From a virus (Duplodnaviria; Caudoviricetes), in IMG/VR virus record IMGVR_UViG_3300022923_000017, positions 1 to 59,112 of that record: a stretch of DNA of 59,112 nt; one strand, given 5' to 3'. The notes under the pieces were generated by a model. That model was not told where the DNA came from and ran no database searches. It was given only the letters and a program-made list of their open reading frames with translations. Within the stretch, counting starts at the first letter, position 1, and every line of letters starts with the position of its first letter. This document shows positions 2,588 through 45,836 of this stretch, one piece after another. The translations under genes and the position numbers were made by a program.

Positions 2588-3868
2588 ATGTTTAATGCAG
2601 AACAAGATATCAAAAAGTGGGCACCAGTACTAGAACACGCTGACGCCGCTCCTATCACAGACAGCTACAAAAAGGCTGTTACCGCTAAGCTCCTCGAAAA
2701 CACTGAAGTAGCTCTTAAACAAGAGCGCGCTCAGTATGGTGAACTTAACGAAAATAATCAAGCAACTGGTGCAGTTTCTAACTTCGATCCAGTTCTTATC
2801 TCCCTTGTACGTCGTGCAATGCCTAACCTCATCGCTTATGATGTAGCAGGTGTTCAGCCAATGTCCGGTCCAACTGGTCTCATCTTCGCGATGAAGAGCC
2901 GTTACAATCCTACTGACGGAGTTATCGGTCCAGTCGAAGATGGTGTCGAATTCGTTGACGCTGATCAGCCTGAAGCTCTTGGTCTCGACGAGCCTGATAC
3001 AGCTTTCTCCGGTACTGGTACACATCCAGCAGGCGTAGGCGTTGCCACATCTACTGGCGAAACTCTTGGAACTGCTGGTAATCTTTTCGGTGACATGGGT
3101 TTCACAATCGAAAAAGCTGTTGTTGAAGCTAAGACACGTGGTCTTAAAGCTGAATACACAATGGAGCTTGCACAAGATCTGAAGGCTATCCACAACTTGG
3201 ATGCTGAATCTGAGCTTGCTAACATCCTCTCGACTGAAATCCTTGCTGAAATCAATCGCGAAGTTATCAACTCGATCAACAGTATCGCCGTTGAGGGTGC
3301 TGCCGGAGCTACTGCCGCTGGTACATTCAGCCTTAGCGCTGATGCTGATGGCCGTTGGGCTGTTGAAAAGTTCAAGAGCTTGTTGTTCCAAATCGAAGTT
3401 GAAGCTAATAAGATCGCACTTACCACTCGTCGTGGTAAAGGTAACTTCATTATCTGCTCTTCTAACGTTGCTTCTGCTCTTGCAGCTGCCGGCGTTTTGG
3501 ATTATTCTCCTGCTCTCGCAACCAATCTTCAAGTTGACGCAACTGGTAACACCTTCGCAGGTGTTCTTAATGGTCGCATGAAGGTATATGTTGATCCTTA
3601 TGCAGGTCCTGATTATGTAACAGTTGGCTATCGTGGCACTAACGCATACGATGCTGGTCTCTTCTACTGCCCATACGTACCACTCACTATGGTTCGCGCA
3701 GTTGATGAAAACACCTTCCAACCTAAGGTTGCTTTCAAGACTCGTTACGGTATGCAACAAAATCCATTCGTCGGTCTCGCTCAAGGTATCGGCACTGCTG
3801 GTGAGAATTCTTACTTCCGTAAGTTCTTGGTAACCGACATCAACGTTGGCGAAGCACCTGCTGTATAA
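2588..3868 (+). CDS. gp23: major capsid protein
   Basis: LVRRAMPNLIAYDVAGVQPMSGPTGLIFAM, LKAEYTMELAQDLKAIH, YCPYVPL, FKTRYG. Confidence 0.98.
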   Translation: MFNAEQDIKKWAPVLEHADAAPITDSYKKAVTAKLLENTEVALKQERAQYGELNENNQATGAVSNFDPVLISLVRRAMPNLIAYDVAGVQPMSGPTGLIFAMKSRYNPTDGVIGPVEDGVEFVDADQPEALGLDEPDTAFSGTGTHPAGVGVATSTGETLGTAGNLFGDMGFTIEKAVVEAKTRGLKAEYTMELAQDLKAIHNLDAESELANILSTEILAEINREVINSINSIAVEGAAGATAAGTFSLSADADGRWAVEKFKSLLFQIEVEANKIALTTRRGKGNFIICSSNVASALAAAGVLDYSPALATNLQVDATGNTFAGVLNGRMKVYVDPYAGPDYVTVGYRGTNAYDAGLFYCPYVPLTMVRAVDENTFQPKVAFKTRYGMQQNPFVGLAQGIGTAGENSYFRKFLVTDINVGEAPAV

Positions 3869-34422: not shown

Positions 34423-34735
34423 AGAATATACTTTTGTTGAAAAGGTAGACTCAGAGCTGTATTCTATTAAGATCTTAGAAGGTCTTTATGCAAATATAAT
34501 CTATACATACGGTAAAGTTACTATCGAAGAAGATGTTGAAAATGACTTAGCCCGTATACTTTTCGATTTCGTAATTGAAAGAGCAATAGATCCATATACT
34601 GCAGAAGAGTTAGAATCGAGCGACGAGTTCAGAAACTACATTGGAAATATCTTAACAGAAATCTTAAATAATCAGGACGCACAAATCGGAAATGCCACAA
34701 AATCTACAGACGATAATACTCAAGACACTGACTAA
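34415..34735 (+). CDS. conserved protein at the gp40 position
   Basis: Between uvsX and gp41; synteny only. Confidence 0.55.
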   Translation: MSKEYTFVEKVDSELYSIKILEGLYANIIYTYGKVTIEEDVENDLARILFDFVIERAIDPYTAEELESSDEFRNYIGNILTEILNNQDAQIGNATKSTDDNTQDTD

Positions 34736-36056
34736 TGATGAAGGCTTTTGCAGAAAAGTTATTCCTCATATTAAAGGCGAATACTTCGAAGAACAACATC
34801 AAGCGGTATATGACTTATTCTTAAGATTCATAACTAAGTATAATAAGCTTCCAACCCCAGCAGTACTTGAAGTTGAGTTCCAAAGCTCTGAGTATGTTAA
34901 TCGCCCAATCGCGAATGACACACTCTCACTAATTAAAGAGCTGCGTAACGAGAACGAGGTCGATGTTGAATGGTTATTAGAATCGACTGAAACATGGTGC
35001 AAAGATCGATCTGTCTATCTCGGACTAATGGAAGCAATTTCTATTATTGATGGCAAATCTGAGAAGGCAGAAGGAGCAATTCCTGATATCTTAACTAAAG
35101 CACTATCAGTCAACTTCGATACTAATGTTGGCCACGACTACTTAGATAATGCTGAATCGCGATATGACTTTTATCATCTTAAAGAAGATAAGACTCCATT
35201 CGATTTAGAGATGCTAAACACTATCACAGCAGGTGGTGTTCCACGTAAGTCATTGAATATTGTACTTGCTGGTACAGGTGTTGGAAAATCTTTGGCGATG
35301 TGTCACTTTGCATCTGATGCCTTATCACAAGGTAAGAATGTGTTATACATTACAATGGAAATGGCAGAAGAGAAGATTGCTGAACGCATCGATGCAAACC
35401 TATTTGATGTTGATATCGCTACGCTTAAAGATCTTAATAAGTCTACATTCGTCAACAAGGTAAAACATATCAACGATAAGACACAAGGTAAGTTAATCAT
35501 TAAAGAGTATCCAACTGCATCTGCCCACGTAGGTCATTTTCGTGCACTCTTAAATGAACTGAAGATGAAGAAGAAGTTTACTCCTGATGTCATCTATATC
35601 GATTACCTTAACATCTGTGCAAGCTCACGCATGAAAGGTCTCGGAGGTTCTATCAATACTTACTCTTATATCAAAGCAATTGCTGAAGAGATCCGCGGTT
35701 TGGCTGTCGAGTTCAATGTTCCTATTTGGTCTGCGACACAATCAACTCGTACTGGATTCGGTAATACCGATGTTGAGATTACCGATACATCTGAGAGTTT
35801 TGGTTTGCCAGCAACATGTGATCTTATGATTGCTCTTATATCAACTGAACAACTTGAAGCAGCAAATCAAGTAATGATAAAGCAATTGAAGAATCGATAT
35901 AATGACATCTCTCAACACAAAAGGTTTTGTGTAGGTATTGATCGATCGAAGATGAGATTATACGATGTTGAAGCTTCTGCTCAGACATTGTCAAGTGATG
36001 AAATAACATCTGCACCATCGACACCTAATAAGGACTTCAGCGCGTTTAAGATATAA
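34692..36056 (+). CDS. gp41: replicative helicase
   Basis: AGTGVGKS, YITMEMAEE, IDYLNIC, SESFGLP, KQLKNRY. Confidence 0.96.
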   Translation: MPQNLQTIILKTLTNDEGFCRKVIPHIKGEYFEEQHQAVYDLFLRFITKYNKLPTPAVLEVEFQSSEYVNRPIANDTLSLIKELRNENEVDVEWLLESTETWCKDRSVYLGLMEAISIIDGKSEKAEGAIPDILTKALSVNFDTNVGHDYLDNAESRYDFYHLKEDKTPFDLEMLNTITAGGVPRKSLNIVLAGTGVGKSLAMCHFASDALSQGKNVLYITMEMAEEKIAERIDANLFDVDIATLKDLNKSTFVNKVKHINDKTQGKLIIKEYPTASAHVGHFRALLNELKMKKKFTPDVIYIDYLNICASSRMKGLGGSINTYSYIKAIAEEIRGLAVEFNVPIWSATQSTRTGFGNTDVEITDTSESFGLPATCDLMIALISTEQLEAANQVMIKQLKNRYNDISQHKRFCVGIDRSKMRLYDVEASAQTLSSDEITSAPSTPNKDFSAFKI

Positions 36057-36526
36057 TGAATATTACTGCAATCGGATCTGGTAGAAAGAAGCGCGAGATG
36101 GCAGAGGATCTCGCGCGCTGCGCTGCTATGAAGTTAATGCCGCGGCTGCGAGATAGACTATGCATAGACATCAACCTCATTCCTCGACTGAGTCAAAAGG
36201 ATAACGTTGCTGGAGACTGTATATGGGAAGATAGTCGCACACGACCAAGAGAGTTTACAATACGAGTTGACTCAACTCAACCGCTCCAGACAATGTTAGA
36301 AACTATTGCGCATGAGATAGTACACGTAAAGCAGTTTGCTAGAGGTGAACTACAGGACACTAATTCTTTTAATTTAAGTAAATGGAAAGGCAATAATATC
36401 AATCTCAATAAGACGCATTATTACGATCTTCCGTGGGAGATTGAAGCTCATGGAAGGGAAAAAGGACTGTTCATCCGTTGGTTTGAGCAGAGCCGCTGGA
36501 AAAACTGCAAATGGGCAGAATATTAA
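36056..36526 (+). CDS. zincin-like metallopeptidase
   Basis: AHEIVHVKQ, PWEIEA. Confidence 0.75.
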   Translation: MNITAIGSGRKKREMAEDLARCAAMKLMPRLRDRLCIDINLIPRLSQKDNVAGDCIWEDSRTRPREFTIRVDSTQPLQTMLETIAHEIVHVKQFARGELQDTNSFNLSKWKGNNINLNKTHYYDLPWEIEAHGREKGLFIRWFEQSRWKNCKWAEY

Positions 36527-36578: not shown

Positions 36579-38135
36579 ATGGGAACAATGCTAGAATTTA
36601 AAGAATACATTACTGAAGAGCTCTCTACAGGATCTCTCGAAAAAGCCTCTGTTATAATGCTTAAGTACCTTCGCAAAGCGACTGGTAACAACAAGATTTT
36701 TGTAACTCAAGGATTAGAGAAGTTCAAAAACTCAAATGGCGCTGGGTATGGAGTAAGATTCTATGCTCCAGGCAAAAAGATTGAATCATGGAGATTCAAT
36801 TGGAAGTCTGTTGGATCAGCTAACACTAATAATCTATCTTCGATCGATCTATGGAATGGTTCATCGGCAGGACCAAACCATCATATCTCTTTTGAAGCAG
36901 ATGTATCATTAGTACAAATTCTCCCACAGCTTGCTGATATGATCAAAGCTGGAAAGGTAAAGCCTGGCAAATTTGTAACATACCCAATGGGTGCTCCTCT
37001 CAACGAAAGCCTAGAAGACGGCGAAGAATGCGAAGAGTTGAATGAAGCAGTTAATCCAGAAGATGCATATGATAATGTAGTTTCTCTTATCTCAAGCCCA
37101 GGTTTTACAAAGCAAAAGGTGTTTAAAGTTTGGAAGTCGGTTGGTATAAAAATCTTCGACGAAATGGAAGCTAGAAATCCAGCTATCATTGCAAAGGATG
37201 GAAGAAAGTACAATTGGTCTGGAAGTGCTGCAGATGTTAAGAAACTTCTTTCTCAAAGGAGCGAAATTCTATCAGCGATCGGCACAACCCGTGGTACTGT
37301 CCGCTCAGGAACTTCTAAAGAAACATACTCACATAATCCTCAGCTTGACGAATTAGAAGCAAGCCGTGAGCGATTGGATTATGAAAAGCAATTGGCTGAC
37401 TTAGAGAATCTGATTAAGATGACAATATCTGGTGCAGCGAACGCACTCTTCATTGCAGGTCGTGGTGGTATTGGTAAGACATTCACCGTTGAAAAGGTAC
37501 TAAAAGATTCAGGTTTGTCTGATGGTAATGGTTACTTTAAGAACACTGGTACAGCATCTGCTGCAGGTATCTACTCACTCTTGTTTAAGAATCAAGACGG
37601 TATTATTCTTTTTGATGATTCTGATGATGCACTGAAAGATCAAGAAGCACGTAACATTTTTAAAGCTGCTACTGATACTAAGAAGATTCGCAAGTTGGTT
37701 TGGAATAAGATGGGGAAGAACGTTGTTGAACCTGACGAATACGAAGATCCTCAAGAATTGATCGATGCCAATTTGATCCCACGTTACTTCAACTTCACGG
37801 GTAAGGTTATCTTTATCTCGAACTTGAAGATGGACAAACTTGATCCTGATGGTGCTCTTCGTACTCGAGCGTTTATGATCGAGATTGACCCTACTGAAAC
37901 TGAGATCTATGACTTCATGGAAACCATTGTTGGTAAGATCAAGTTAGATGGTAGTTTCGATCTGGACTTAAAGACACGTAAGTCAGTTGTCGACATGCTA
38001 CGTAAAGGTAAGTCTAAACAATCTGCTAATTTAAGAAAACTATCCCGTGCTTTAAACATGATGGCTGGTACTATTAAGTCTGGCGTAAGTGTCTCTGAAT
38101 CTGAACTCACTCGCATGATCGAAACATATGCTTAA
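36579..38135 (+). CDS. multidomain late protein with C-terminal AAA+/P-loop ATPase
   Basis: GRGGIGKT Walker A, ILFDDSD Walker B, ALRTR; N-terminal MLEFKEYITE. Confidence 0.75.
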   Translation: MGTMLEFKEYITEELSTGSLEKASVIMLKYLRKATGNNKIFVTQGLEKFKNSNGAGYGVRFYAPGKKIESWRFNWKSVGSANTNNLSSIDLWNGSSAGPNHHISFEADVSLVQILPQLADMIKAGKVKPGKFVTYPMGAPLNESLEDGEECEELNEAVNPEDAYDNVVSLISSPGFTKQKVFKVWKSVGIKIFDEMEARNPAIIAKDGRKYNWSGSAADVKKLLSQRSEILSAIGTTRGTVRSGTSKETYSHNPQLDELEASRERLDYEKQLADLENLIKMTISGAANALFIAGRGGIGKTFTVEKVLKDSGLSDGNGYFKNTGTASAAGIYSLLFKNQDGIILFDDSDDALKDQEARNIFKAATDTKKIRKLVWNKMGKNVVEPDEYEDPQELIDANLIPRYFNFTGKVIFISNLKMDKLDPDGALRTRAFMIEIDPTETEIYDFMETIVGKIKLDGSFDLDLKTRKSVVDMLRKGKSKQSANLRKLSRALNMMAGTIKSGVSVSESELTRMIETYA

Positions 38136-39522
38136 TACACTAAAATCCTTCCAGACGTTTCTCCTTGAAGGAACTAAGCTTGCTCCAAGTGAATTAAAGA
38201 AACCAGCAACTGGTGGGCCAAATAGCGGTACTGCTCGCACTGAGATCTTAGCGAACAAGATTCGTAAGCAAGAACCTCTTACCCTCGCAAAGGGTGGAGA
38301 ATTTCTTGTTACTGATACTTCAACAGCTCTTGCAGCTATTGAACAATTCAAAAAAGATGGTAAAGTATTCAAACTGATCGGTAAAGGTGGCTCTGAAATA
38401 TCCATATCTGATCTACTGAAAACACCAGAATTTGGTGGTGGAGCAGGAGCAGGTGGTGGTACAACTGGTACTGCAATTGGTGAATCTGCACAGTGTGTAT
38501 GGATGGCAGCAATGCTTGATATTGGTTCTGCTATGCCGATTGAAAGTTTCACTGATAAAGTTCTTACTAAAGCATTTAAGTCAGTGAGTGTTGGTAAATC
38601 TTCGCTTAAAGAGATTTTAGCAATTGACGAAGGATGGAAAGTTTCGTCTTATCTCTCTGCACAATACGCAATTAAAAATCGTATCATTGAAAAGGGAATG
38701 ACGTTTCATCGCGACGATTCTTTGATGAAGGCAATATATTCTGCTAAAAATACAGCTTTCAAGAACAACGGTTTTAAACCGCTACCTGACGATAAGTGGA
38801 ATCCTGGAGACATTTGGGTTGCTGACTCAGACTTCTCAGTAAAGGAAATATCGACTACAACTGTAGAAGATATGAACGATGATATTCTAGATCTTTATCT
38901 ACAAAAGCGTTTAGTTGGAATATCATTGAAGAAGGTTGCAAAAGGTGCACAAGGTGTAGAAAAGAATGTTGAACGTCCTCCTGAAACCGAAGACTATAAG
39001 TATAGTGCTGGTCATATTAAAGCACTAAAGCGCGGCGAGTGGTATACAACTAAAGCCAATTACATTACGCACCAAGCTGGTCAACTTGATATCCGCGATA
39101 ATAACGCATTTGGTACGCATAAAGTCGAAATCAAGGGTAAAGGCGCTCGTGGTGGTGGTGCATCTTGGGGAGTATTATCAGATGCAGCAAAGAGAATTTA
39201 TCGTACAGAGCTTCCTAAAACTTCAGCAATGAAAAAGGAAGCATTACTCATCGCTAGTGGTGATAAAAAGGCTATTGCCAAGTTTACTAAATTGCTTCAG
39301 ACCGTTGATAAGAAAATTACCGAGAAAGAAGTAGTAGAAAAACTAAATGCTATTGGTAAAAATCCTGGAATTTGGATTCACGGTAAACTCGGTGGATTGT
39401 ATGTGCTCAATCTTATTGCGAAAGGTGGCATTAAAGCTAATAAGTTTATTACGCAAATCATCAATTACGCAGGTAGTTCAACATCTGATTCTAGCTCATA
39501 TATAATCATAAAAGAAAAATAA
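38128..39522 (+). CDS. late protein with degenerate PD-(D/E)XK-like core
   Basis: ESAQC, DKWNPGDIW, VGISLKK; N-terminal LKSFQTFLLE. Confidence 0.6.
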   Translation: MLNTLKSFQTFLLEGTKLAPSELKKPATGGPNSGTARTEILANKIRKQEPLTLAKGGEFLVTDTSTALAAIEQFKKDGKVFKLIGKGGSEISISDLLKTPEFGGGAGAGGGTTGTAIGESAQCVWMAAMLDIGSAMPIESFTDKVLTKAFKSVSVGKSSLKEILAIDEGWKVSSYLSAQYAIKNRIIEKGMTFHRDDSLMKAIYSAKNTAFKNNGFKPLPDDKWNPGDIWVADSDFSVKEISTTTVEDMNDDILDLYLQKRLVGISLKKVAKGAQGVEKNVERPPETEDYKYSAGHIKALKRGEWYTTKANYITHQAGQLDIRDNNAFGTHKVEIKGKGARGGGASWGVLSDAAKRIYRTELPKTSAMKKEALLIASGDKKAIAKFTKLLQTVDKKITEKEVVEKLNAIGKNPGIWIHGKLGGLYVLNLIAKGGIKANKFITQIINYAGSSTSDSSSYIIIKEK

Positions 39523-40046
39523 TGAGTCAACTCGACGCAGCACTAAGATTCCATAGAGAGAATCAAATCCCATTAGCACATAACATTTTCCGACCACACT
39601 CGGAGAATTATTATAAACTATTTTGTCACGCAAGACAGATGAAAGAATCCGCGGTGAATCCTTTGAATGAATTCGACGAGTATCTTATGTCAACAGATAT
39701 TGGTGAGCTTGCAATGCATGAAGGTAAAGAAGTACCATTAGATCATCCATTGATTGAAGCAGAATATAAGGGTAAGGAAGTTGAATTGAACGATCCAAAG
39801 CGTGGTGGCAAAAAGAAATTTTTTGTCTACGTTAAGAATGACAAGGGGAACGTAATCAAGGTTCAGTTTGGTGACACATCTGGTCTTAAGGCTAAGATCG
39901 ATGATCCAGCAGCTCGCAAATCTTTCGCTGCTAGACACCAATGCCATTTAAAGAAAGATAAAACAAAGCCAGGCTATTGGTCCTGCAATCTTCCACGATA
40001 TGCATCACAGCTTGGTCTAAAAGGCGGAGGATCCTTTTTTTGGTAA
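39522..40046 (+). CDS. conserved hypothetical late protein, basic C-terminal domain
   Basis: KKFFVYVK..GNVIKVQFG, RKSFAARHQC, GYWSC. Confidence 0.7.
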   Translation: MSQLDAALRFHRENQIPLAHNIFRPHSENYYKLFCHARQMKESAVNPLNEFDEYLMSTDIGELAMHEGKEVPLDHPLIEAEYKGKEVELNDPKRGGKKKFFVYVKNDKGNVIKVQFGDTSGLKAKIDDPAARKSFAARHQCHLKKDKTKPGYWSCNLPRYASQLGLKGGGSFFW

Positions 40047-40047
40047 T

Positions 40048-41580
40048 ATGAGTAAACCATATACAGATAACACAAAAGGTAAAGTAAAGATTCGTACATT
40101 TGAATCTAACATTGAATCAGATGAATTGGTTTGGCACCGTGATCGAGCAGATCGTGTTATTACAATACTAGAAGGTGATGGATGGATGTTTCAAATGGAT
40201 AACGCTGTACCCTACGAGTTAAAAGAAGGTGATGTTTTAAAAATTTCAAAAATGGAATACCATAGAATTTATAAAGCAGGCGATACTAATTTAGTATTAG
40301 AAATTGAAGAGCCTAACGGCAAACCAATTAAAGAATTTAAGATGAAAACATTTAAAACATATCTAGCCGAAGCTTCCAAAGCTGGTAAGAATACTCACAT
40401 GCAACATCTTGAGGATGCAGTCATCTATGGCGGTGTCAAAGGAACGAGAGAAGCGATCTTTGCTCTCCGCTCTTTAAGAGATATGCTAGCAGGAAATAGC
40501 AATTCTTCAACTGATGTAACCGTCAAATGGGATGGAGCTCCTGCAGTTTTTGCTGGTATCGATCCAGAAGATGGCCAATTCTTTGTTGCTAAGAAAGGTA
40601 TCTTCAATAAAGATCCTAAAGTGTATAAGTCAGAAGCTGAAGTAAGAGCTGACACATCTGGCGATCTTGCAGAAAAGCTAGTGATTGCATTTAATGAATT
40701 GAAAGATCTTGGTATTAAAGACGTGATTCAAGGTGATATCATGTTTACTAAAAGTGATTTAGCAACTGAATCAATCGACGGTGAGAAGTATATAACCTTT
40801 CAGCCTAACACTATTGTTTATGCGGTACCTGCGAAATCAGCACTCGCTAAAACTATACAGAAGGCGAATCTCGGTGTTGTATGGCATACTACATACACAG
40901 GAAAAGACTTTGAATCAATGAAAGCATCCTTTAAGGTTGATTTAAAAGGCCTCAAAAAGAAAGCTTCTGTCTGGTATCAAGATGCTAACTTCAGAGATAT
41001 TTCAGGTAAAGCGACTCTATCTGCGAGCGGAACAAAACAAGTATCTGAGGCACTTGCCAAAGCTGGAAAGATATTTCAACAGATCGCGGGCTCAACTCTT
41101 AAAGAACTTGAATCCAATCAAGCTCTTGCAATTAAACTTGAGACATTCAATAATACTCTTGTTCGTAAAGGACAACGCATTGGAAATACGACTAAGCATG
41201 TTCAAGATCTTATCACATGGTTTGATGAGAAGTTTAAGAAGGAATATGAAAAACGTTCAAGCGATAAGGGCAAAGCAAACGTTACAGCAAAGCACGAAGA
41301 GGAAATGAAGTTCTTCTCAAAAGAGAATAAGAAAAACCTTGATCTAATGTACCAACTTCAGAACGCGATTGTTGATGCTAAGCTGCTTATCATAAGTAAA
41401 CTAGATCAGGTGAAACAACTTGACACATTCATTCGCACTAAGAACGGATTTAAGGTTACTGGGTCTGAAGGCTTTGTTGCAATCGATACAGCCTCTAACG
41501 GCGCAGTAAAACTGGTCGACCGCCTAGAATTTTCAACTAACAACTTTTCTCCAGATACCATTAAGGGTTGGGAGCGATAG
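40048..41580 (+). CDS. cupin-like domain fused to DUF6267-like (ligase/nucleotidyltransferase-fold) domain
   Basis: WHRD...YHR cupin pattern; internal MKTFKTYLAE at 40342; KNTHMQHLED, TVKWDGAPA, QGDIMF, EGFV, VKLVDR. Confidence 0.7.
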   Translation: MSKPYTDNTKGKVKIRTFESNIESDELVWHRDRADRVITILEGDGWMFQMDNAVPYELKEGDVLKISKMEYHRIYKAGDTNLVLEIEEPNGKPIKEFKMKTFKTYLAEASKAGKNTHMQHLEDAVIYGGVKGTREAIFALRSLRDMLAGNSNSSTDVTVKWDGAPAVFAGIDPEDGQFFVAKKGIFNKDPKVYKSEAEVRADTSGDLAEKLVIAFNELKDLGIKDVIQGDIMFTKSDLATESIDGEKYITFQPNTIVYAVPAKSALAKTIQKANLGVVWHTTYTGKDFESMKASFKVDLKGLKKKASVWYQDANFRDISGKATLSASGTKQVSEALAKAGKIFQQIAGSTLKELESNQALAIKLETFNNTLVRKGQRIGNTTKHVQDLITWFDEKFKKEYEKRSSDKGKANVTAKHEEEMKFFSKENKKNLDLMYQLQNAIVDAKLLIISKLDQVKQLDTFIRTKNGFKVTGSEGFVAIDTASNGAVKLVDRLEFSTNNFSPDTIKGWER

Positions 41581-41591
41581 TAACAAAAATA

Positions 41592-41599
41592 TATAAATA
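41592..41599 (+). promoter_or_regulatory. late promoter
   Basis: TATAAATA 5 nt before ATG 41605. Confidence 0.75.
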
Positions 41600-41604
41600 G
41601 AATT

Positions 41605-41766
41605 ATGAACAAGTTGCCGATAAATTTCAAAGACTTCCTCACTGTAGATTACACACAGCAGGCGGGAACCGATATTGATCCTGACGGCTTACTTGCGTAT
41701 CAAGCAAAAAAGCGAAAGAGTCGACTCGATGAACTATCTAAGATGAAAAAAGTCAAATCTAAATAA
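41605..41766 (+). CDS. small basic late protein (53 aa, absent from ORF track)
   Basis: MNKLPINFKDFLTVDYTQQ...AKKRKSRLDELSKMKKVKSK; stop overlaps next ATG. Confidence 0.6.
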   Translation: MNKLPINFKDFLTVDYTQQAGTDIDPDGLLAYQAKKRKSRLDELSKMKKVKSK

Positions 41767-43070
41767 TGAAATCATTTAAGCAGTTTACAGAAGCGAAGAA
41801 GAAGGAGATAGTTTTTACATTTGGTAGATTCAATCCTCCTACGGTCGGTCATGAAAAGCTCATCAAAGCTGTCATCAAGATTGCAAGCGGACGTGACTAT
41901 AAGATCTTTGCATCACAATCAAACAAGCCTGATACTGATCCTCTCAAGTACAAAGAGAAGGTATCTATCATGCGTAAGATGTTTCCTAAGTACGCTCGCA
42001 ACATCATACTTGATGAAAAGATAAAAACCGTATTCAACATCGCGGTAAAACTATATGATCAAGGCTATACTGATGTTACAATGATTGTTGGATCAGATCG
42101 CATTAAAGAATTCAAAACATTATTGAATAAGTTTAATGGTGTTAAATCTAGACACGGCTTCTATGAATTCGACACTATCACATTGCAATCGGCAGGCGAA
42201 AGAGATCCAGATGCTGATGGTGTTTCTGGAATGTCTGCTTCTAAAATGAGAGCAGCTGCAACTGATGGTGATTTTAAAGCATTCTCAAGCGGAATACCTA
42301 GAGACTACGGCGATGATATGGGGCTCTTTAATCTCCTTCGTAAAAGAATGGGACTAAAAGAAATGACGAACTTTCGGAAGCATATTCAACTTCCAACGGT
42401 TTCTGAGAAACGTGAACGGTATATTTCAGGCGCTATTTTTAACGAAGGTGATACTGTATACGCAAACGGCAATGTTGAAATTACTATCCAAGAACGTAAA
42501 TCTAATTACGTAGTATGTAGTAAAGGCAATAAGTATTTTATTCAATCGCTTGAAGAAGCACTGGAAGATGGTACAGATAAAGCAGCTGAAACCTACAAAA
42601 AGGGTACACCTGGTCAACTAAGCGAAAAACAAATTAAAGGACTTGAAAAGAAGTCGGAAGAATCTGGTATTGCGTATAGTGTCCTAAAAAGCGTATTTGA
42701 TCGCGGTATGGGAGCGTATAAGACAAGCCATCGCCCAGGAACAACACCTCAGCAGTGGGCATTTGCTCGTGTTAACTCGTTTATCTCAAAAAGCAAAGGT
42801 ACTTGGGGCGGTGCTGATAAAGACTTAGCCGCTAAAGTCAAAAAAGAATCAGTTAACGAAGGCGAAGGTAAAAGTGAAACTTGGGAAGATGGTTTTAAGC
42901 GTCGAGTAGTTAAAGTAACTAAACCTGAACACCTCGAAAGCGGCTACAAATGGCGCATCAAGGGTAAAGAACGCGATAACATTTCAATCAAATTGTATAA
43001 AGAAAAACCAAACTTCGAAGAATATAAAAAACAAATGAAAAGAGTCGCTGGACATGAATTTGGAGGGTGA
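41766..43070 (+). CDS. HxGH-family (cytidylyl/NMN-adenylyl) nucleotidyltransferase with extra C-terminal modules
   Basis: FGRFNPPTVGH, VGSDR, SAGERDPD, MSASKMR; later RGMGAY...QQWAFARVNSF module. Confidence 0.8.
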   Translation: MKSFKQFTEAKKKEIVFTFGRFNPPTVGHEKLIKAVIKIASGRDYKIFASQSNKPDTDPLKYKEKVSIMRKMFPKYARNIILDEKIKTVFNIAVKLYDQGYTDVTMIVGSDRIKEFKTLLNKFNGVKSRHGFYEFDTITLQSAGERDPDADGVSGMSASKMRAAATDGDFKAFSSGIPRDYGDDMGLFNLLRKRMGLKEMTNFRKHIQLPTVSEKRERYISGAIFNEGDTVYANGNVEITIQERKSNYVVCSKGNKYFIQSLEEALEDGTDKAAETYKKGTPGQLSEKQIKGLEKKSEESGIAYSVLKSVFDRGMGAYKTSHRPGTTPQQWAFARVNSFISKSKGTWGGADKDLAAKVKKESVNEGEGKSETWEDGFKRRVVKVTKPEHLESGYKWRIKGKERDNISIKLYKEKPNFEEYKKQMKRVAGHEFGG

Positions 43071-43076
43071 GATTTT

Positions 43077-43084
43077 TATAAATA
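43077..43084 (+). promoter_or_regulatory. late promoter
   Basis: TATAAATA upstream of 43102. Confidence 0.75.
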
Positions 43085-43101: not shown

Positions 43102-44193
43102 ATGGGAAACATGAAAATACTAAACACAAACACCGCTATCTATACGATTGAGCTCCATGAGGCAAAGGTTGTACCTTTCAAAAAGCTCGAACAAGCATGG
43201 ACTCGAACTAACGGAGATAAAGCAAAACAAGCAAAGCTTATTAAGAAGCATGACTTAAAGACGCTTATCTCTACAGTAAGACCTGGATCGATTAAACTTG
43301 GAGTCATGAATAAGTTGAATCACGTTAATGGAAATGCTACTGCAGCTGGTCTCGATTTAGACGGAGAGTTGATCTTCATTACGAATAATCCTGTTAAGAT
43401 CATCTATCCCAAAAAGAGCTCTCGCCGTCCTGAAGGAGAAGAGATTGAAGAAGCAGATGATGCCGCGATCGTTGAAGAGAAGGTTGAAGAGAAGAAGAGC
43501 CTCAACACGCTCCGCCTAGAGAAAGTAGCATCACTTGCGCTTAAAGAAGATGATCAAGGTTTGATTGAAGCGTTTGTTAAGACTGAGACGTTTAGTATTG
43601 ATTCGACTATAAGCGAAATCAAAGAAGCATATAAGATATTTGAAGCAAGTGCTGATTGGATCATTTATGACAAGAAAACAGGAAAGCAACTAAGCCCGTC
43701 AAAGTCTTGGAGAAAATGGCAAGGCGCTAAAATGGCTGCTGCTAAGATTGGCGGAAATGCTGAACCAGCTGACGCCGCATGGTATAACGACAATAAGGCT
43801 AAGTTGCTGGGTGAAGCTACTGATCTTGAAGAAGGTAAAATACCAAGTTCTAATATAGCTAAATTTTCAAGTCCTCAAGCTGCCAAGCGCGCTGCTTCTA
43901 AACAGAAATATATAACTCAAGTATTTATGGGAGATGATGATAAATTTTGGGTTCCTTCAACAAATAAAGAAGCAGGCCAACTAAAAAAAGATGGGTATGA
44001 AGTATACGAAGCAGCAACATGGAAGTCAGAAGGTCATTACACTGCAGATGGAAAGGAATGGACTGGTGATCAACATGAAGTTGACGGCCAAGTAATGACA
44101 GGTAAAGTACACACTGATGATAGTGTAAACTTATATCACTTTAAAGAATTATCACCGGAAGTAAGAAAGCAAGTCGCAGCTTCTTTCGAATAA
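43102..44193 (+). CDS. putative internal head polyprotein
   Basis: Basic modules separated by LHEA, IEEA, IFEA, LGEA-TDLEEG, VYEA. Confidence 0.6.
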   Translation: MGNMKILNTNTAIYTIELHEAKVVPFKKLEQAWTRTNGDKAKQAKLIKKHDLKTLISTVRPGSIKLGVMNKLNHVNGNATAAGLDLDGELIFITNNPVKIIYPKKSSRRPEGEEIEEADDAAIVEEKVEEKKSLNTLRLEKVASLALKEDDQGLIEAFVKTETFSIDSTISEIKEAYKIFEASADWIIYDKKTGKQLSPSKSWRKWQGAKMAAAKIGGNAEPADAAWYNDNKAKLLGEATDLEEGKIPSSNIAKFSSPQAAKRAASKQKYITQVFMGDDDKFWVPSTNKEAGQLKKDGYEVYEAATWKSEGHYTADGKEWTGDQHEVDGQVMTGKVHTDDSVNLYHFKELSPEVRKQVAASFE

Positions 44194-44220
44194 CCACAAA
44201 AATAGATTTAACATGGGAAT

Positions 44221-44529
44221 ATGGATGACATGAACGCAAACGAAAAAACGCGACTAGATCGAATTGAAGAAAAGATCGATAAGATGGCAGATGCTATCAT
44301 TGCTTTGGCCAGAGCCGAAGAAAAGATCTCAGCCCAAGAAGAATCAACTAGGATCATCCTCAAGAGAATGGTCGATCAAGACGACCGCTTAAGGCTGATT
44401 GAACGCGATCTATCTCACGTCGAAGATACAACTAGAACCATAAAGTCAGTTGTATGGACTATCACGACAGCAATCATTGGATCTATCGTCGCGGCATTTG
44501 TTTGGATGTTTGATATCCCAACCAATTAA
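44221..44529 (+). CDS. coiled-coil protein with C-terminal TM helix (XhlA/holin-like architecture)
   Basis: RLDRIEEKIDK heptads plus hydrophobic tail. Confidence 0.55.
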   Translation: MDDMNANEKTRLDRIEEKIDKMADAIIALARAEEKISAQEESTRIILKRMVDQDDRLRLIERDLSHVEDTTRTIKSVVWTITTAIIGSIVAAFVWMFDIPTN

Positions 44530-44536
44530 ATTTCAA

Positions 44537-44544
44537 TATAAATA
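44537..44544 (+). promoter_or_regulatory. late promoter
   Basis: TATAAATA upstream of 44565. Confidence 0.75.
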
Positions 44545-44564
44545 ACACTTTAACCAAAACAACT

Positions 44565-45836
44565 ATGAATATTCAAGACACACCACGTTCACTCGCTAAC
44601 GCTGTAAGTAACATTATGGCCGGTCACTCAATCGAAAAGGTTGAACTTACCGAAGCAAAAGAAACTACAGTACCATTCGAAAAGATGAACATTCTTACTC
44701 CCGACCAATGGGATCAAGTTCAGAACTTTAAAAACTTCAATAAGAAGGATTGGAAATGGAACGCAATCCAAAAGAAGTTCATCCGCTTAGAGAAGATTAA
44801 AGAAGAAGATGTTGAAGAAAGCAATGAGTTTACTGCAGCAGCTGCTAAAGCAAAGCTTGCTGGCAAAGATGAATTTGAATTTGATGGTAAAACATATCCT
44901 GTAGAGATCGAACAAGATGCTGCTGAAAAGATTCTTGGTAAGAAAGAATCTGTTGAAATCGAAGAAGCATCTAACGCAGATCTGAAGAAAGTTCTTGCTA
45001 CTGCTAAAAAGGTAGGTGCTGATGTTAAAGGAAATACAGCAGATTTTGGTCAAGGTGCAGTAATTGATTTTTCTATCGAAAAGGGTAAGATTAAGTTTGA
45101 TGGCGGTATGTCATCTGGCGTTGAATACTTTAAAAATGTTAAAGACGCAATTAGCGCATTGATGACTGGAGTTGACGAATCGATTGAAGAAGCAGTCAAA
45201 TTTTGGACAGTAACTGTCACTAAGAAAGCTGGTAAACTCTTTAAGGGTCAAACAGTTGATGTGAAAGCTAGTAATAGCGCTGAAGCCATTAAGAAAGGTC
45301 TGAAGCAAATGAAGGTTGACAATCCAATGACAGTTCCAAGTGGTAGTGTTGATGCTGTACTAGCTGAATCATCTGATCTTGAAGAAGCGGCAAAGCCATC
45401 GAACGGTAAATCAACTGTTGGTCTCGATGTAGTGGATGCCAAGGCCGCTATGAAGGACATGAAGAAGTTTAAGCTTAAAGCTAAAGAAGGTAAAGGAAAT
45501 GGCAGTGCTGATGAAGTTATTGTAACAGGTAAAAACGCTGACATCTTTAAGTATCTAAGATCTGATTATTACGATATGGACGCTGATGAGATCGAAGAAT
45601 TCTATCCTGAATTGTTTGAGTCTGTTGATCTTGAAGAAAGCGTTAACGAAAATCGAGCAGTTGTTCATAATCCAAGAGGTATCAGAGCGTTTATTAGACA
45701 AGTAGAGAAAAAGTTTCCTCAGTATAAAGGTGAAATTGAACAGCTTGAAGACGATGAGATTGTTTTTCCAGATGACGAAAAATTAAAGAAGTTTTTTAAA
45801 GGAGCAAGAGAAGTTAAGTTTGTTCTTACACGATAG
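44565..45836 (+). CDS. putative internal head polyprotein (about six modules)
   Basis: Linkers VELTEA, DVEES, ESVEIEEA, ESIEEA, ESSDLEEA, ESVDLEES. Confidence 0.65.
   Translation: MNIQDTPRSLANAVSNIMAGHSIEKVELTEAKETTVPFEKMNILTPDQWDQVQNFKNFNKKDWKWNAIQKKFIRLEKIKEEDVEESNEFTAAAAKAKLAGKDEFEFDGKTYPVEIEQDAAEKILGKKESVEIEEASNADLKKVLATAKKVGADVKGNTADFGQGAVIDFSIEKGKIKFDGGMSSGVEYFKNVKDAISALMTGVDESIEEAVKFWTVTVTKKAGKLFKGQTVDVKASNSAEAIKKGLKQMKVDNPMTVPSGSVDAVLAESSDLEEAAKPSNGKSTVGLDVVDAKAAMKDMKKFKLKAKEGKGNGSADEVIVTGKNADIFKYLRSDYYDMDADEIEEFYPELFESVDLEESVNENRAVVHNPRGIRAFIRQVEKKFPQYKGEIEQLEDDEIVFPDDEKLKKFFKGAREVKFVLTR

Follow-up and report, generated by a model that had tools for sequence, protein, structure and literature searches.

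The internal proteins of bacteriophage T4 are textbook examples of proteins that are carried in the capsid and injected against host defences, and each is the product of a gene of its own. Here we describe two open reading frames (ORFs), ORF 43102 and ORF 44565, in a 59,112-nucleotide stretch of viral DNA (positions 1 to 59,112 of the IMG/VR record IMGVR_UViG_3300022923_000017, hereafter the window). Each opens with a short leader at the N-terminus, after which come five or six unrelated, independently folded modules of about 50–100 amino acids (aa). We regard it as rather probable that both encode late cargo polyproteins, predicted from their sequences to be loaded into the prohead and processed by the gp21-type protease, and place less confidence in the further proposals that the modules are injected and act as effectors.

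Excerpts of two accounts of T4 describe internal proteins that enter the prohead core, are set free by gp21 and leave the capsid together with the DNA (PMC9026906, PMC3012670). IPI, IPII, IPIII and Alt are small, diverse and in many cases basic, and their genes lie at a distance from the head operon; the system described here resembles them in these respects, in having an N-terminal leader that ends in L/I-x-E/A (the slash marks the bond that is or would be cut) and in the gp21-type protease encoded by the phage. The T4 leaders (NC_000866) read MKTYQEFIAE/A in IPII and IPIII and MKTFKEFTS...ITE/A in IPI. T4 uses one leader per cargo, whereas here a single leader precedes five or six linked modules that are swapped as cassettes; in these two respects the system would depart from the T4 pathway of capsid-targeting sequence (CTS) and gp21, which it otherwise resembles in its working. 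The two ORFs also differ from the T4 proteins in lacking sequence similarity to IPI–III, in the make-up of their leaders and in being known from sequence alone. The T4 scaffold and core proteins gp22, gp67 and gp68 offer a second comparison, as they too carry many gp21-type sites and acidic stretches, and sister polyproteins of the two ORFs occupy the slot upstream of gene 21. There is no homology between the two groups, and a scan with PF25623 matched neither ORF 43102 nor ORF 44565; the pieces between sites are here folded, conserved and unrelated, not coiled-coil or acidic filler. Unlike the T4 core genes, moreover, the two ORFs do not themselves adjoin gene 21, being located about 41 kb downstream of gp21.

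Other multidomain or shuffled phage systems share particular features with this locus. Polyvalent proteins are described, in excerpts of Iyer et al. 2017 (PMC5512222), as mosaic chains of 2–15 unrelated domains that are believed to travel with the invading DNA and to be cut into units. The many unrelated domains per polypeptide and the extensive mosaicism are common to both, but the domains described in those excerpts are enzymatic or anti-restriction and are accompanied by an embedded peptidase (MPTase) for self-processing, whereas the modules considered here are much smaller, processing would occur in trans at a fixed linker, and Pfam and PHROG scans of both ORFs found no known conflict domain and no peptidase domain in the chain. 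In the giant phages phiKZ, 201phi2-1 and SPN3US, many head-internal proteins, such as inner-body and ejection proteins, undergo cleavage behind the Glu of a three-residue motif, at several sites per propeptide, according to excerpts of PMC9026906 and PMC5694885; there, long propeptides are trimmed from single mature proteins, and swappable module chains are not described in those excerpts. With regard to shuffling, PeSL promoter–terminator cassettes mediate modular exchange in T4-like genomes (Comeau et al. 2014, PMC4122927, in excerpt). As in our case, unrelated units are flanked by a short stretch of conserved DNA at which exchange takes place in variable T4-like regions, but PeSLs are intergenic and regulatory, whereas the element found here is an in-frame linker of 14–24 nt inside an ORF and encodes a putative protease site. 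In the main texts of open-access papers in PMC and bioRxiv we found no description of such polyproteins, and the words 'polyprotein' and 'prohead' have 0 occurrences in the body of the pelagimyophage survey PMC7029224.

Both ORFs are punctuated by peptide sites of the gp21 type. An earlier note on this DNA had named a series of them, all of which are present, and counting of the motif [LIV]-x-E-[ASG] against 2000 composition-preserving shuffles per ORF places them far beyond chance. ORF 43102 holds 8 sites (shuffle mean 1.43; at least 8 in 0/2000 shuffles) and ORF 44565 holds 9 (shuffle mean 1.83; at least 9 in 0/2000), corresponding to 22.0 and 21.3 sites per 1000 aa. This is five-fold higher than in the remaining + strand ORFs of at least 90 aa, which contain 67 sites in 16,123 aa (4.16 per 1000). 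Comparable densities within the window are confined to the gp22-type scaffold (24.0 per 1000; 1410–2537, + strand; PF25623 T4_CASP, E 1.9e-57), which by its sequence may be taken as an internal yardstick for a multiply cut gp21 substrate, and to gp21 itself (20.2 per 1000; 743–1339, + strand; PF03420 Peptidase_S77, E 9.7e-42; phrog_207, E 9e-77), the enzyme presumed to process the linkers. The identical statistic in T4 (NC_000866) gives 37.2 for gp22, 25.0 for gp67, 18.9 for gp21 and 7.1 for gp68; the two ORFs are in the range of T4 core proteins, and their site density is therefore that of known multiply-cut gp21 substrates. Across the six-frame ORFs of the whole window a strict 8-residue linker motif has only six occurrences: three are in ORF 44565, and ORF 43102, gp22 and ORF 328, the last just upstream of gp21, have one each.

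The same note had extended the idea to further genes. Sites like those of the two polyproteins do exist in ORFs 36579, 39522 and 41766, but the motif is not enriched there (P 0.27, 0.34 and 0.34), and for ORFs 36579 and 39522 the extension has no statistical support. ORF 41766, a protein with cytidylyltransferase-like and DUF5824 domains, is backed separately: its ESVNE/G site (42846–42863, + strand) is a module insertion point, at which an orthologue (P0076) carries a module of ORF 43102, A4, between two STDLEE linkers (...NESTDLEE/[A4]/STDLEE/GEGKSE...).

The linker itself was characterized from 80 distinct contexts upstream of module starts, which were defined by homology and not by the motif. 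Their consensus is K-E-S-(T/V)-D-L-E-E/A, and the best-kept positions are E at −1 (69/80), L, I or V at −3 (62/80) and A, G or S at +1 (66/80). The specificity of gp21 is given as L/I-X-E, with a Glu-Ala bond cut in gp22 (PMC9026906, in excerpt), in agreement with the (I/L)-x-E rule that the earlier note had taken as established. The junction profile supports a match to this rule, with L/I at P3 and E at P1, and A/G/S at P1' fits the Glu-Ala bond. As E also occupies position −7 in 42/80 junctions, the linker is often a possible double site that would free a hexapeptide such as STDLEE, although the second cut is a conjecture.

At the DNA level the linkers are alike as well, as had been claimed. 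The four 24-nt strings singled out beforehand, at 43813 (EATDLEE/G), 44946 (ESVEIEE/A), 45366 (ESSDLEE/A) and 45618 (ESVDLEE/S), are all present and are pairwise identical at 16–19 of 24 nt. Codon usage in 61 linkers from distinct contexts, compared with non-linker codons of the same ORFs, is close to uniform: Leu is CTT in 51/52 cases (36% elsewhere), Val is GTT in 23/24 (50% elsewhere), Thr is ACT in 19/24 (43% elsewhere), Ser is TCN in 49/49 (71% elsewhere, the other 29% being AGY) and Glu at −2 is GAA in 57/57 (81% elsewhere). Module DNA, by comparison, has diverged to a median dS (synonymous divergence) of up to about 1.2. A degenerate 23-nt linker pattern is matched exactly by 52 IMG/VR stretches, 22 of which hold 2–5 copies. 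These observations support conservation of the linker as DNA beyond what the peptide requires, and by analogy with PeSLs the codon uniformity would fit homologous recombination within the linker. Modular shuffling of the PeSL type in T4-like genomes was reportedly also the subject of work by Arbiol et al. in 2010. A role for the GATC that arises from GAT-CTT in the linker, as a Dam or nicking site, was considered and dropped, given that this tetramer is not enriched in the two ORFs (6.35 versus 5.53 per kb in the window).

The modules were traced separately among relatives, which were gathered by two IMG/VR scans with the ORFs, a word-index protein search (141 hits) and exhaustive phmmer searches; for ORF 44565 alone the latter returned 395 clusters at E ≤0.001 and 142 at E ≤1e-10. 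All searches return partial matches whose ends coincide with the proposed linkers. Both ORFs were cut at their sites into 13 pieces (leaders A0 and B0, modules A1–A5 and B1–B6), each of which was blasted against all fetched sequences. At least one window module is present in 343 distinct proteins and at least two in 195; modules of both ORFs are mixed in 125 proteins, and in 98 their order is unlike that of the window. Metagenomic relatives display 91 distinct architectures of modules of 50–100 aa, among them a 902-aa ORF with the order A1-A2-B3-A3-B1-B4-B6 and others reading B6-A3-B4, A1-A2-B3-A4-B4 or B2-B1-...-A1; the longest relative (P0127) has 1105 aa and roughly 16 modules. Matches span each module from first to last residue, at 80–100% identity, across differing contexts. 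Of the internal ends of homology, 248/342 in ORF 43102 and 431/609 in ORF 44565 (about 71–73%) fall no more than 8 aa from a linker, and these ±8-aa zones make up 23–24% of the sequence. Contigs of other public runs leave the window sequence at the linker positions 43813/43834, 44008/44015, 45179, 45370 and 45638. The modules therefore form a library that is shuffled at the linkers, and the module swapping that had been proposed is borne out, since individual modules recur in new orders and contexts. They are also mutually dissimilar (the best pair has E 0.002 over 16 aa) and Lys-rich (12.7–13.7% K versus 8.4% background), both as had been noted.

Some relatives join modules to larger domains, namely CTP_transf_like, DUF5824, Zeta_toxin/AAA_33 and DnaJ_CXXCXGXG. 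In P0083, P0119 and others, A5 is connected through ...QLGE/A to a P-loop kinase-like domain (PF06414 Zeta_toxin or PF13671 AAA_33), and P0119 contains DUF5824 in the same chain. Judged by these A5 fusions, enzyme domains appear to participate in the same cassette system. In P0112 and P0113, a CTS-led modular protein, a stretch of about 20 aa (..VSVQPMSGPTGSMFAMKK..) that resembles the conserved VAGVQPMSGPTGLIFAMK of the window's gp23 is found just before A5 and carries a precomputed Pfam flag, PF07068. A cultured example of a true array was sought in Methylophilales phage Melnitz and rejected; its syntenic cluster has CTS-like leaders and a single weak three-site protein.

Polyprotein A (ORF 43102; 43102–44193, 363 aa) and polyprotein B (ORF 44565; 44565–45836, 423 aa), with all the parts given below, are on the + strand and were delimited by ORF and site cuts. 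Pfam and PHROG scans yield no family for either polyprotein, bar one sub-threshold PHROG match. Leader A0 (residues 1–20, 43102–43161) ends in IELHE/A (residues 16–21) and is 85–100% identical in loci that hold it. Modules A1 and A2 (residues 21–181, 43162–43644) travel as one unit, with EIEE/A inside a disordered acidic joining stretch; A1 is followed by A2 in 59/59 adjacencies, the sole pair that is always together, and their ratios of nonsynonymous to synonymous substitution (dN/dS) are 0.11 and 0.41. Module A3 (residues 182–244, 43645–43833; dN/dS 0.17) ends in GE/ATDLEE/G, and its linker EATDLEE/G (GAAGCTACTGATCTTGAAGAAGGT, 43813–43836) is where contigs of other runs diverge, with loose ends at 43813 and 43834. 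Module A4 (residues 245–303, 43834–44010) is an autonomous mini-protein: it is matched end to end by a free-standing 70-aa gene of Pseudomonas phage ZQG1 (43% identity over 56 aa, E 5e-19), an unrelated siphovirus in which the A4-like gene lies within a run of small genes. In contigs of three other runs (X15, X16 and X7) A4 is missing or replaced, the joint running from 43839 to 44008 (168 nt). Module A5 (residues 304–363, 44011–44190; dN/dS 0.04), which elsewhere is fused to the kinase-like and DUF5824 proteins, also occurs in Atlas as stand-alone viral proteins of 58–60 aa, a finding that serves as a lead only.

Polyprotein B begins with leader B0 (residues 1–30, 44565–44654), delimited by its final VELTE/A (residues 26–31) and by homology, and with module B1 (residues 31–85, 44655–44819), which ends in EEDVEE/S. 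Module B2 (residues 86–134, 44820–44966; dN/dS 0.07) ends in KE/SVEIEE/A and is the commonest sole window module in a relative (36 cases). Module B3 (residues 135–209, 44967–45191; dN/dS 0.15), ending in VDE/SIEE/A, is present in the head-operon polyproteins of relatives. Module B4 (residues 210–274, 45192–45386), ending in AE/SSDLEE/A, has 25 distinct copies in the loci with eight different direct downstream neighbours. Module B5 (residues 275–358, 45387–45638), ending in FE/SVDLEE/S, is duplicated in tandem in one relative (L037) and in a contig of run X7, whose loose end lies at 45638. Module B6 (residues 359–423, 45639–45833; dN/dS 0.15) is modelled as a ferredoxin-like alpha+beta mini-domain. 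Over 12 modules dN/dS amounts to 0.04–0.41, indicative of purifying selection.

An AlphaFold2 model of ORF 44565, built from an alignment of 38 collinear whole-protein relatives, has a mean predicted local distance difference test score (pLDDT) of 75 and a predicted template modelling score (pTM) of 0.34; with so low a pTM there is no fixed inter-domain arrangement. Most internal 10-residue blocks of B2, B3, B5 and B6 reach at least 90, with values of 95–97 at residues 91–120 (B2), 90–97 at 141–200 (B3), 85–92 at 281–350 (B5) and 90–96 at 371–410 (B6), and B4 scores 58–82. Scores fall below 50 at residues 126–131, 204–211, 268–275 and 353–361, the four later linkers from B2/B3 onward. Modelling is poor in the N-terminal third, which comprises B0, B1 and their junctions, B1 and its surroundings lying below 50 at residues 20–44, 55–65 and 71–85. 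The model supports a beads-on-a-string organization of independent mini-domains and disordered linkers, and the folds are modelled as generic small alpha+beta sandwiches. For ORF 43102 the model is poor (mean pLDDT 56.6, A4 and A5 below 50, and a disordered acidic stretch below 50 at residues 106–131); the alignment rows of A4 and A5 are probably misaligned and no fold conclusion is therefore drawn. Weak Foldseek rows point to KH-like domains and small T4-like ORFans such as '8.8 kDa protein in frd-Gp32 region', which are leads only.

PHROG and Pfam scans show that the window belongs to a T4-like myophage. Besides gp21 and gp22 it encodes the major capsid protein Gp23 (2588–3868), UvsY, a UvsW-like helicase, the late sigma factor gp55, gp46/47-like nuclease subunits, a CobT/CobS pair, a sliding clamp with its loader and a DNA polymerase; reading of the translations suggests a DnaB-like helicase at 34692 and a ribonucleotide reductase from 47427 onward. 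Among cultured phages the capsid protein is closest to those of Melnitz (58.8% identity) and Pelagibacter phage HTVC008M (56.6%), and the source is therefore taken to be an uncultured marine relative. A blastn search of the polyprotein region against 50,697 GenBank phage records gave zero DNA matches.

Several features connect the two genes with the phage head. The T4 late-promoter consensus TATAAATA lies on the + strand at 43077–43084, 18 nt before the ATG of ORF 43102, and at 44537–44544, 21 nt before that of ORF 44565, as motif matches only. The window contains 15 copies, compared with 4.65 expected (15 was reached in 0/100 shuffles); all are on the + strand and none on the − strand, and most are just upstream of ORF starts when their positions are read against the ORF list, including those preceding ORF 328 (at 315), ORF 36579 (36539) and ORF 41605 (41592). 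Late transcription in the 59-kb stretch accordingly appears, from these motifs, to be strictly unidirectional. The stretch upstream of ORF 44565 is conserved in relatives, and in several loci its translation reads LNFNINNTLTKTT before the M.

A further connection is provided by ORF 328 (328–741, + strand, 137 aa), directly upstream of gp21, which consists of a helical, conserved N-domain, the double site SE/AVELDE/A (487–510) and one C-terminal module. A homologue of this N-domain (36% identity, E 1e-9) is the N-domain of relatives' polyproteins bearing A4 and B3, where ES(V/T)DLEE/A linkers and library modules, these two among them, come after it. Such a head-operon polyprotein lies 0–1 genes and 11–318 nt upstream of gp21 in 13/13 fetched loci that contain one, and gp22 and gp23 follow gp21 in those 13 wherever the locus is long enough. 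In two loci (L117 and L118) 11 nt separate the end of the polyprotein match from gp21; the 352-aa ORF of L117, which is preceded by TATAAATA, itself ends 5 nt before gp21. As these sister polyproteins adjoin gp21, the cassettes occupy the slot of T4 prohead core genes 67 and 68. ORF 328 was considered as a gp67/gp68 homologue, which was not detected, and gene position alone is comparable. Nine loci (e.g. L115, 5774–6061) have a conserved 95-aa ORF (MKIEPLTVAA...FTKLGFYG) between polyprotein and gp21, which is absent from the same place in the window and L117.

We infer a course of events that covers loading into the prohead, gp21 cleavage, retention, injection and the roles of the modules. The precursor would be made late and incorporated into the prohead core, and the gp21 homologue would cut the linkers during head maturation. 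The acidic linker peptides would then be lost, and the mini-proteins would remain with the DNA and pass into the host along with it, in the way of T4 internal proteins. About half of the mini-proteins are basic (isoelectric point, pI, 9–10), and the precursors are acidic to neutral (pI 5.1 and 6.4), so that removal of the linkers would unmask basic products. Given the near identity of the linkers at the DNA level (core GATCTTGAAGAAGC), we propose that they recombine with one another, which would add, delete and exchange modules in frame and give rise to lineage-specific sets.

Several observations weigh against these proposals. The leaders of the two ORFs (MGNMKILNTNTAIYTIELHE, MNIQDTPRSLANAV...) are unlike the T4 capsid-targeting sequences in NC_000866, and the ORF 328 N-domain has no BLASTP match to T4 gp67 or gp68 (hhalign probability 0.7%). 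ORFs 43102 and 44565 lie about 41 kb from the head operon, amid replication and nucleotide-metabolism genes, and tblastn against the 50,697 phage records returned 0 matches for ORF 44565, hence absent from cultured phages, and 1 partial match, to A4, for ORF 43102. Several modules are acidic and not basic. Foldseek searches of both models against PDB and BFVD gave 0 matches at E ≤0.001, the best Z of a VIA-wide fold search (6.9, and 6.7 for B6, which is not above noise) is inside the tool's stated noise, and an Atlas search returned no named family for the modules. The L-x-E motif is very short and would arise easily in Glu-rich linkers, and the fixed linker codons could reflect recent common descent and not selection for recombination. 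Contigs from RNA libraries (two runs of one study) span most of both ORFs, but transcription, strand and ends cannot be demonstrated from them.

Some of these points would suit other explanations. It is unlikely, in our judgement, that the two proteins are auxiliary scaffold or core components, cut by gp21 like gp22, gp67 and gp68 into pieces that are expelled or degraded, their diversity being that of a weakly constrained filler. The site density equal to that of gp22 and gp21, the sister polyproteins in the head operon beside gp21 and the acidic to neutral precursors would agree with such a role, as would the fate of T4 core proteins, each of which yields several fragments on cleavage, most of them not remaining in the head (PMC9026906, in excerpt). 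Against a filler, the modules are compact, folded and under purifying selection, they retain 80–100% identity across different contexts, and other phages have them as genes of their own; there was no match to T4_CASP or any other scaffold family, and the 5–11 kDa products have the size of T4 IPI (95-aa precursor), which is retained in the T4 head. We consider it similarly improbable that the chains stay uncut and act in the infected cell, for instance in host takeover or DNA binding, with the linker as an inherited flexible spacer. The position amid replication genes and far from the head operon, the leaders unlike the T4 CTS, the shortness of a motif whose likeness to a gp21 site could stem from Glu-rich composition, and the codon uniformity expected from common descent are what speaks for it. 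Conservation peaks, however, at P3 L/I, P1 E and P1' A/G/S rather than reflecting general acidity, outside the two ORFs the window has the strict motif only in gp22 and in the gene that precedes gp21, and the same modules and linkers are present in a gp21-adjacent gene in all 13 loci. T4 late-promoter motifs precede both genes, and remoteness from the head operon is shared with T4 ipI–III, which lie at 65–74 kb with gene 21 at 103 kb.

Cleavage in the cytoplasm by another host or phage protease, in the manner of prohormone or multi-core precursor processing and with no part for the capsid, seems very unlikely. A modular chain with a fixed inter-module site would suit any site-specific protease, and ORF 36056–36526 is a putative metallopeptidase-like candidate, its matches being below curated cut-offs. 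The site nevertheless fits the known rule of a protease that is present, the metallopeptidase matches are sub-threshold, and the sister genes in the head operon point to the prohead. As to leaders, L/I-x-E followed by a small residue ends both of those in the window and likewise occurs within the first 45 aa of 103/173 M-starting polyprotein-like relatives, at a median position of 15.

If the cargo reading is correct, one leader and one gene would deliver half a dozen small proteins, in a set that is re-dealt at an in-frame linker. This would provide abundant ocean phages with a new route to diversify injected proteins, make hundreds of small, autonomous, folded modules candidates for host manipulation in the first minute of infection, and give T4-based delivery systems a natural model for packaging several cargos. 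More tentatively, and with considerable doubt, the linker might be dual-purpose, a peptide cut site and a DNA crossover at once, in a combinatorial, population-level injected arsenal that would extend to neighbouring enzymes with CTS-like leaders (cytidylyltransferase-, ligase- and kinase-like). Co-infecting phages would in that case gain, lose and reorder cassettes in frame, such as anti-defence or host-takeover factors.

The five genes at 36579–43070 encode an AAA-like ATPase, phrog_1462, phrog_7595, a protein with cupin and DUF6267 domains and the cytidylyltransferase-like DUF5824 protein. Several have N-termini resembling T4 capsid-targeting sequences (MKSFKQFTE/A, MLNTLKSFQTFLLE/G, MGTMLEFKEYITEE); the first is that of ORF 41766, and T4 IPI starts with MKTFKEFTS.... 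Syntenic genes of Melnitz start with MQGFKTFLSE/A and MKKFSEIIE/A. Judged by these leaders, the enzymes of the cluster may themselves be carried in the head. The DUF6267 protein has a K-x-D-G motif, which we take to be a mark of nucleotidyl-transferase (ligase-like) enzymes. In its ORF (40048–41580) a CTS-like MKTFKTYLAE/A is internal, at residues 98–108, after the cupin domain and just before DUF6267, an arrangement suggestive of a cupin module fused ahead of the leader; Melnitz encodes the cupin-like piece separately, in an 89-aa ORF (L063, 16860–17129).

Just before this CTS-led cluster, the 156-aa ORF at 36056–36526 has an HExxH-like IAHEIVH, and its weak, sub-threshold matches are to DUF6782 and Peptidase_M30 (E 0.006–0.009). 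Between the two polyprotein genes, a 102-aa ORF (44221–44529) combines a coiled coil with a C-terminal hydrophobic helix, has weak PHROG 'hemolysin' and 'holin' matches (E 1e-4 to 6e-3) and has no late-promoter motif directly upstream. Lastly, ORFs 43102 and 36579 and many relatives start with MG(N/T)M..., two in-frame ATGs three codons apart; the second ATG may be the true start of these genes, or the start region may be conserved as DNA.

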